Below are positions 20,942-21,083 of a stretch of DNA of 64,000 nt, piece after piece. The number at the start of each line of letters is the position of its first letter. Within the stretch, counting starts at the first letter, position 1. The notes beneath the pieces are model-generated. The model was given only the letters and a program-made list of their open reading frames with translations, was not told where the DNA came from and ran no database searches. The translations under genes and the position numbers were made by a program. Source of the DNA: a virus (taxonomy: Duplodnaviria > Caudoviricetes). Location: positions 1 through 64,000 of IMG/VR virus record IMGVR_UViG_3300014059_000006; one strand, 5' to 3'.

Positions 20942-21019
20942 ATGAAAATGAATACACAACATACGCAACGTTTTACCCCGTTCTTCTGTGAAGAGCCTGG
21001 GGGAGGTTGTGGATGTTAG
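20942..21019 (+). CDS. attenuator leader peptide 1 (MKMNTQHTQRFTPFFCEEPGGGCGC)
   Basis: Lies between promoter and terminator; codons 5-19 are exclusively T,Q,H,R,F,P,C,E, the isotypes of the downstream tRNAs. Confidence 0.85.
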   Translation: MKMNTQHTQRFTPFFCEEPGGGCGC

Positions 21020-21050
21020 GGAAAGTAATTTCTCTATTGTTAAAAAACAC

Positions 21051-21083
21051 AAACCTCCATCTCAAAAAGTTGGAGGTTTTTTT
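21051..21083 (+). terminator. attenuator terminator 1
   Basis: AAACCTCCA...TGGAGGTTT + T-tract; 5' arm alternatively pairs with GGAGGTTGTG (21002-21011). Confidence 0.9.

Follow-up and report, generated by a model that had tools for sequence, protein, structure and literature searches.

Predicted multivalent leader-peptide attenuators in front of the tRNA blocks of a crAss-like phage

The region 20900-21083 of the phage genome analyzed here is probably, to judge from its sequence organization, a multivalent ribosome-mediated attenuator of the trp/his style, which would control read-through of the host RNA polymerase into a phage tRNA operon. The window, i.e. the whole 64,000-nucleotide stretch of DNA that was analyzed, constitutes the first 64 kb of a single 107,908-bp contig (G+C 31.6%). 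The source phage is crAss-like, with a major capsid protein of the crAss type, and its DNA is contained in wastewater metagenomes. All 16 tRNA genes called by ARAGORN in the whole genome fall inside the window, and 15 of them lie on the + strand between 21.1 and 27.8 kb; a second tRNA-Pro(tgg) call stands isolated on the - strand (12966-13036), distant from this array. Four contigs from other samples, reached through the PhoH gene that adjoins the array, provided relatives for comparison (L001, L004, L015 and L016), with PhoH identities to the window of 91% for L001 and 57% for L004. The features of the first module are as follows:

20900..20931, + strand: promoter P1 of the Bacteroidota type (pattern search)
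20942..21019, + strand: leader ORF 1, with ATG at 20942, 25 sense codons and TAG at 21017-21019
20954..20998, + strand: regulatory run, codons 5-19 of leader 1, with the eight operon 1 amino acids only
20959..21016, + strand: hairpin 1:2, inside leader ORF 1 (MFE fold)
21002..21011, + strand: 5' strand of the predicted antiterminator (region 2), within codons 21-24
21048..21059, + strand: region 3, with region 2 (antiterminator) or 21071-21079 (terminator) as alternative partners
21051..21083, + strand: intrinsic terminator, a 9-bp GC-rich stem (21051-21059 / 21071-21079) and seven T
21128..22845, + strand: operon 1, eight tRNAs and two HNH-type genes (ARAGORN)
21128-21201, + strand: tRNA-Glu(ttc)
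21769-21845, + strand: tRNA-Pro(tgg) (ARAGORN)
21895..21926, + strand: internal promoter, 5' of the second endonuclease gene (motif only)
22351-22422, + strand: tRNA-Cys(gca)
22463-22538, + strand: tRNA-Phe(gaa)
22542-22615, + strand: tRNA-Thr(tgt)
22621-22693, + strand: tRNA-Arg(acg)
22700-22773, + strand: tRNA-Gln(ttg)
22774-22845, + strand: tRNA-His(gtg)

Leader ORF 1 and the operon that it precedes

Leader ORF 1 begins in an A-rich context and is placed between P1 and the tRNA-Glu gene. A check against the sequence reproduced codons 5-19 exactly as they had been given in a preliminary description of this DNA. As claimed there, these 15 codons are restricted to the amino acids of operon 1 and include all eight of them (Thr, Gln, His, Arg, Phe, Pro, Cys and Glu), and Arg is specified as CGT, for which the anticodon acg is encoded downstream. 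ARAGORN calls the eight cognate tRNAs downstream on the same strand. By ordinary wobble the encoded anticodons read 13 of the 15 codons in the run, the other two, ACC and CCT, requiring four-way wobble by U34 anticodons. When every codon in six frames of the whole 107.9-kb genome (215,812 codon positions) was labelled by tRNA block, the longest block-1 run was that of leader ORF 1, with a runner-up of 8 codons. The codon match is far beyond chance: given the phage's own codon usage, the probability that a 25-codon ORF has a run of at least 15 codons covering all eight species is ~9e-9.

The substitutions seen among related leaders bear the marks of translation. Between the window and L001, codons 4-25 show 8 synonymous and 0 non-synonymous changes, and length differs only through the in-frame insertion of two whole codons, Glu and Arg. 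In a wastewater strain variant (run X3), four synonymous changes fall on third positions, one Pro codon is replaced by Arg(CGT), itself a member of the set, and one Phe codon is lost in-frame. We infer that the leader is translated and that stalling within it would raise read-through. Two sequencing runs labelled as RNA-Seq are probably DNA and contain only fragments of relatives.

P1 belongs to a group of seven copies of a promoter-like motif (TTTG, 20 nt, TAnnTTTG; the Bacteroidota sigma-A pattern), recovered by a fixed-length pattern search and clustered at 20.9-28.4 kb, with starts at 20900, 21895, 23485, 23844, 24505, 27620 and 28363. A 28-nt stretch of the P1 region is identical in L001. 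Transcription from P1 would start a few bases downstream of the motif, giving a leader 1 5' UTR of probably ~6-12 nt, and initiation in the window would therefore be near-leaderless; the UTR of the L001 leader is longer. The internal promoter at 21895-21926 may express Cys through His, that is six of the eight tRNAs, and in doing so would bypass the first attenuator.

Operon 1 is split by the HNH-type genes at 21239-21730 and 21932-22372, and L001 and L004 carry the same eight tRNAs in equal order without endonuclease genes. The tRNA-Pro(tgg) gene is an ARAGORN call only, with no match to the Rfam tRNA model, and is kept at the equivalent place in L001 (2314-2390) and L004 (4975-5051); at 77 nt and with an enlarged D region it is non-canonical, yet conserved in the three phages.

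Several further peculiarities of the array were observed. Three homing-endonuclease cassettes occupy 21090-21768, 21849-22460 and 23758-24340 of the window, with genes for an HNH (21239-21730), an HNH-like (21932-22372) and a LAGLIDADG protein (23884-24315). Each cassette is flanked on its two sides by what is left of the 5' and 3' parts of an older tRNA gene (Glu, Cys and Asp, respectively) and brings an intact replacement tRNA of identity matching the broken one; in L001 and L004 the Glu, Cys and Asp genes are uninterrupted. A tRNA with a CTA anticodon, of the suppressor type (called as Pyl by ARAGORN), lies in 27620-27770 with its own promoter motif but neither leader nor terminator. No clear sign that TAG is recoded across the genome emerged from a crude scan for read-through, and TAG terminates 13 of 133 long ORFs; reading through the TAG of leader 1 would lengthen the ORF by only two codons, after which a TAA follows. 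A 77-nt segment (24937-25013) between the putative Ser(tga) and Ser(gct) genes is missing in a strain variant, in which a contig from run X3 joins 24936 to 25014, and may represent a small insertion. Between the tRNA array and PhoH lies a gene (25808-26857) for a 349-aa protein with collagen-like Gly-X-Y repeats, the homologue of which in L001 has 294 aa.

The predicted switch in the first attenuator

Leader 1 folds far better than its shuffles (MFE fold, z = -4.9). The hairpin 1:2 within the ORF is modelled as an anti-antiterminator or pause hairpin that would hide the Gly-codon segment when there is no stalled ribosome. The complementarity first described between this segment and the terminator region was recovered: GGAGGTTGTG at 21002-21011 pairs with CACAAACCTCC at 21048-21058 through 7 + 3 bp with a one-base bulge. 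The resulting duplex has an energy of -15.6 kcal/mol (p = 0.002 against 3000 random genome windows), the terminator hairpin, whose T run ends at 21083, one of -13.1 kcal/mol, and the two pairings are mutually exclusive. When a ribosome has the TAG in its A site, its footprint reaches from 21002 onward and takes in precisely the antiterminator strand, as the earlier account had it. Thus the elements that a leader-peptide attenuator would comprise, namely a promoter, an ORF, a cognate codon run, a hairpin 1:2, an antiterminator and a terminator, are all in place as candidates.

The expectation that folding with the ribosome masked would reveal the switch was borne out in part. A 28-nt footprint was placed at each codon in turn. 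Before the 3' arm of the terminator is made, the 5' arm is 0.79-0.80 paired with the A site at codons 9-15 and 0.04 paired with the ribosome on the last three codons or the stop, as a switch would have it; but the full-length equilibrium folds still favor the terminator, with a probability of about 0.2 at codon 9 and of 0.7-0.9 at most other stall positions. It follows that antitermination would have to act kinetically, capturing region 3 ahead of the transcription of region 4. Antitermination in the trp attenuator is likewise kinetic.

These elements suggest the following mode of action. Upon transcription from P1 a ribosome would start on the 25-codon leader, and if any of the eight decoding steps were slow, with the charged tRNA scarce, it would stall on region 1 (codons 5-19). 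The freed Gly-codon segment (21002-21011) would then capture the emerging 21048-21058, no terminator would form, and the polymerase would continue into tRNA-Glu through tRNA-His. With fast decoding, the ribosome would reach the TAG and cover 21002 onward, the terminator would form and transcription would stop; the hairpin 1:2 could also re-form after the ribosome has passed. We assume here that transcription and translation are coupled in the Bacteroidota host. As the output of the switch consists of the very tRNAs being tested, the device would be a self-regulating, supply-on-demand homeostat, for which the natural signal is probably tRNA shortage.

Sister modules and conservation of the design

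Two further modules of the same design are present in the window, and these sister attenuators would act likewise on the other two tRNA blocks:

23485..23679, + strand: module 2, with promoter at 23485-23516 and leader ORF 2 at 23538-23624
23606-23615, + strand: antiterminator strand of module 2
23647-23679, + strand: terminator of module 2
24505..24664, + strand: module 3, with promoter at 24505-24536 and leader ORF 3 at 24545-24607
24596-24603, + strand: antiterminator strand of module 3
24631-24664, + strand: terminator of module 3

Leader 2 contains the longest block-2 run in the genome, 19 codons that cover Asn, Lys, Ile (ATA and ATT), Met, Val, Ala, Gly, Trp, Arg(AGA) and Asp, precisely the species to which the 11 tRNAs of the L004 operon 2 belong. 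Over ten bases the last codons of leader 2 repeat the sequence of the terminator 3' arm, and they can hence pair perfectly with the 5' arm. In the 7-codon run of leader 3 both Leu boxes (TTA, CTC), both Ser boxes (AGT, TCG) and Tyr are represented, and Leu(tag), Leu(taa), Ser(gct) and Tyr follow downstream; the antiterminator of this module is weaker (8 bp). The own-class runs of leaders 1, 2 and 3 in the window are thus 15, 19 and 7 codons, and the other-class runs are at most 4. Apart from Arg, which is divided by codon box, the three leader sets are non-overlapping, and their union comprises all 20 amino acids.

Leader 2 tests 11 species, of which the assembly holds about four: Ala (weak, 26 bits), Asp, a broken Lys and Asn. 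The acceptor stem of the tRNA-Lys(ttt) gene (24336-24423) is broken at about 24407 and has no matching 3' strand, the Rfam alignment covering model positions 8-63 only. In a variant contig (run X4) the sequence from 24407 onward supplies Lys with a proper 3' end, which points to a recent deletion or an assembly collapse as the source of the gap in the window. In L004 and L015 the genes between Lys and Asn are Trp, Arg(tct), Ile, Met, Gly, (Val) and Ile(tat).

The relatives retain the device. Homologues of leader 1 were identified at L001:2084-2173 and L004:4732-4815. In L004 a short ORF and a terminator precede each tRNA block, the second of which consists of eleven tRNAs (Ala, Asp, Lys, Trp, Arg(tct), Ile(gat), Met, Gly, Val, Ile(tat) and Asn) and the third of two Leu and Tyr (ARAGORN) plus two Ser-like genes, one a tRNA-Sec-like Rfam match and the other read by eye. 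L015 and L016 furnish more copies of leaders 2 and 3. Across the resulting ten leaders the longest own-block run is 7-19 codons and foreign-block runs reach at most 5. The own-block run covers all species of its block in nine leaders; in the exception, leader 2 of L015, Val is absent from the run and the Val tRNA is absent from the operon. Leader 1 of L004 has a codon order unlike that of the window, yet it still has a 15-codon run with 8/8 species. In leader 2 of L004 a 14-codon run covers exactly the 11 operon tRNAs (probability of coverage ~0.001 given the run), and leader 3 of L004, L015 and L016 has runs of 9-11 codons with 5/5 species. Thus, leaders 1 and 2 of L004 have their codons in another order than those of the window, and species coverage is 8/8, 11/11 and 5/5: the conserved property is the composition of the leader rather than a peptide sequence.

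The RNA elements are also retained. All ten leaders conserve the start and stop codons and end 25-45 nt before a strong terminator. Complementarity between the end of the ORF and the 5' arm of the terminator is significant in eight of them, with p <= 0.002 for the leader 1 copies, <= 0.015 for the leader 2 copies and 0.035 for leader 3 of the window; leader 3 antiterminators of the window type are weak (7-8 bp with G.U pairs), and the complementarity is not significant in L015 and L016. The arms were compared pair by pair rather than by a formal covariation count, because the 3-4 sequences of each leader family, with their indels, align poorly. The terminator arms vary among the relatives and the 3' end of the ORF varies in step, such that pairing is kept; the core of the leader 2 arm, for example, is GUCCCUA in the window, GCCCUUGG in L004 and GGCCUC in L015. 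Even at full-length equilibrium a clean switch is predicted for leader 1 of L001 and of L004, leader 2 of the window and leader 3 of L004, in which the terminator probability is ~0 with the ribosome stalled in the run and ~0.94 otherwise. A ribosome halted at the stop codon in L001 or L004 does not cover the antiterminator strand, which is situated immediately behind it, so that termination there would depend on the re-formation of hairpin 1:2.

Some relatives depart from this layout. At 3140-3330 of L001, tRNA fragments and a single tRNA-Ile(gat) come directly after promoter 2; with leader 2 and its terminator absent and blocks 2 and 3 mostly missing, L001 presents a natural deletion variant of the array. 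Leader 3 at L015 1577-1646 and L016 140-209 directly follows a protein-coding gene with no promoter motif of its own, and would accordingly be transcribed from the promoter of the upstream gene.

Other searches for relatives were less productive. Single-protein searches of IMG/VR with a 146-aa ORF of the array and with PhoH gave no match, and the neighboring ClpP-like protein found no homologue besides itself. DNA BLAST against GenBank phages recovered only homing-endonuclease and tRNA fragments. Pattern scans for the tRNA-Pro in viral, metagenome and genome collections found no relatives; three candidates from these scans (L012-L014) were rejected as chance matches, as was a 16-nt leader match at L004:3400 beside another tRNA. 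The distant PhoH relatives L005-L011 and L017-L019 have no tRNA array near PhoH and are hence uninformative on the device either way.

Alternative explanations, known systems and implications

Certain correspondences hold at the level of isoacceptors. The Arg codons are CGN in leader 1, which precedes the anticodon acg, and AGA in leader 2, with the anticodon tct, and wherever the tRNAs for both Ile codon types, both Leu boxes or both Ser boxes are encoded, the leader has both kinds of codon. These correspondences bear on a reading in which the same device gauges translation stress in general, responding to starvation for amino acids or to failed charging rather than to tRNA abundance. Such a mechanism would sense the delivery of charged tRNA and be blind to the cause of its failure, and leaders that are multivalent over 8-11 amino acids are what a broad stress gauge would have. 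However, extra tRNA gives no relief from amino-acid starvation, and the match of Arg CGN versus AGA, of Ile ATA versus ATY and of both Leu and Ser boxes is tied to the encoded tRNAs, which points to tRNA species rather than amino acids as the selected variable. We therefore regard starvation as an unlikely natural signal.

It is much less probable that the terminator is a fixed partial stop or part of an RNA-processing leader, and that the ORF is a micropeptide gene or an untranslated by-product that senses nothing. The terminator of the window is favored at equilibrium and ordinary genes also end in terminators, both of which would agree with this view; but it leaves unexplained the 15 in-set codons with complete coverage, the retention of composition despite reshuffled codon order, the recurrence of one rule across three modules and five contigs, and the significant complementarity of ORF ends to terminator arms. 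A T-box-like device, in which the codon run of the leader RNA binds tRNA anticodons without a ribosome, is scarcely credible: leader codons are by definition complementary to the downstream anticodons, but T-boxes read one specifier codon and not 15, Rfam gives no match to a T-box in 20500-28500 or to any other riboswitch even at E <= 1, and the synonymous substitutions, the in-frame indels and the start and stop codons kept in every leader are signatures of translation.

The multivalent attenuator favored here has its closest counterparts in the leaders of enterobacterial operons such as trp, his, leu and pheA, some of which are themselves multivalent, namely thr (Thr, Ile) and ilvGMEDA (Ile, Val, Leu). 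The phage modules resemble these in combining a promoter, a short ORF with regulatory codons, alternative 1:2, 2:3 and 3:4 hairpins and an intrinsic terminator, and in their predicted read-through upon ribosome stalling. Unlike them, they would control tRNAs and not biosynthetic enzymes, and have a phage genome setting, Bacteroidota-type promoters and no sequence similarity or shared Rfam membership. Furthermore, the enterobacterial leaders use tandem repeats of one to three amino acids, whereas the phage leaders spell out 8, 11 and 5 species, each about once or twice. None of the Rfam leader families (Trp_leader, His_leader, Thr_leader, Leu_leader and Phe_leader) reaches its gathering threshold on the window. 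The sub-threshold Rfam matches (PyrR site, GibS and Phe_leader), the best being Phe_leader with 31.6 bits against a cut-off of 55 (L015) and PyrR with 28.5 against 54 (window), were set aside as chance likenesses of terminator/antiterminator shape.

In the attenuator of E. coli pheST, which encodes phenylalanyl-tRNA synthetase, read-through past the pheM leader rises when the cognate charged tRNA is short. This too is leader-peptide attenuation of a component of the translation apparatus, but it controls a synthetase, senses one amino acid and belongs to a cellular gene. T-boxes share with the phage modules a transcription attenuation that responds to the state of specific tRNAs and regulates translation-related genes, but they bind uncharged tRNA directly, free of the ribosome and through a single specifier codon. 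Among published accessory tRNA arrays with conditional expression, the nearest is the cryptic long tRNA operon (trn) of Anabaena PCC 7120, which is induced under translational stress (PMC8421152) and repressed by the transcription factor TrcR (PMC10272220). Like the phage array, as proposed here, it is silent until translation is impaired; it differs in being controlled by a protein repressor, and the words attenuation or leader peptide do not occur in either paper. Full-text literature searches found no published account of leader-peptide control of tRNA genes.

Two reports deal with phage tRNA sets as a counter-defence against tRNA-cleaving host immunity (PMC10264068, PMC11555353), which is a rationale for phages supplying replacement tRNAs; their titles and abstracts concern the function of phage tRNAs and make no mention of demand-sensing control of transcription. 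This raises the possibility, which we put forward tentatively, that the three attenuators together amount to a phage-borne surveillance of the whole decoding pool, in which each block is released only when its own species are short, as a counter-defence. All 20 amino acids would be tested between the three leaders, with 24 tRNA species in the complete relative L004. The array would be silent and cheap in permissive hosts, and would fire upon cleavage of host tRNAs by anticodon-nuclease defences or their degradation during host shut-off. If this is true, the array would be a sensor-coupled counter-defence and not a constitutive supplement to codon usage.

The attenuator model proposed here is simple and can be tested with reporter fusions, defined tRNA pools and anticodon nucleases, and it offers a possible use as a natural, modular sensor of tRNA availability. 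The rule that the composition of the leader equals the downstream tRNA set would serve to find such switches and to predict operon boundaries in uncultured phages. Classical attenuation, known for the supply of amino acids, would thereby be extended to that of tRNAs, with up to eleven decoding species tested in place of one to three amino acids. The reason for the presence of tRNA genes in phages and the manner of their control have been debated for decades; a leader that spells out its own tRNA block would show that a phage can measure decoding speed codon by codon and supply only those tRNAs that are missing.
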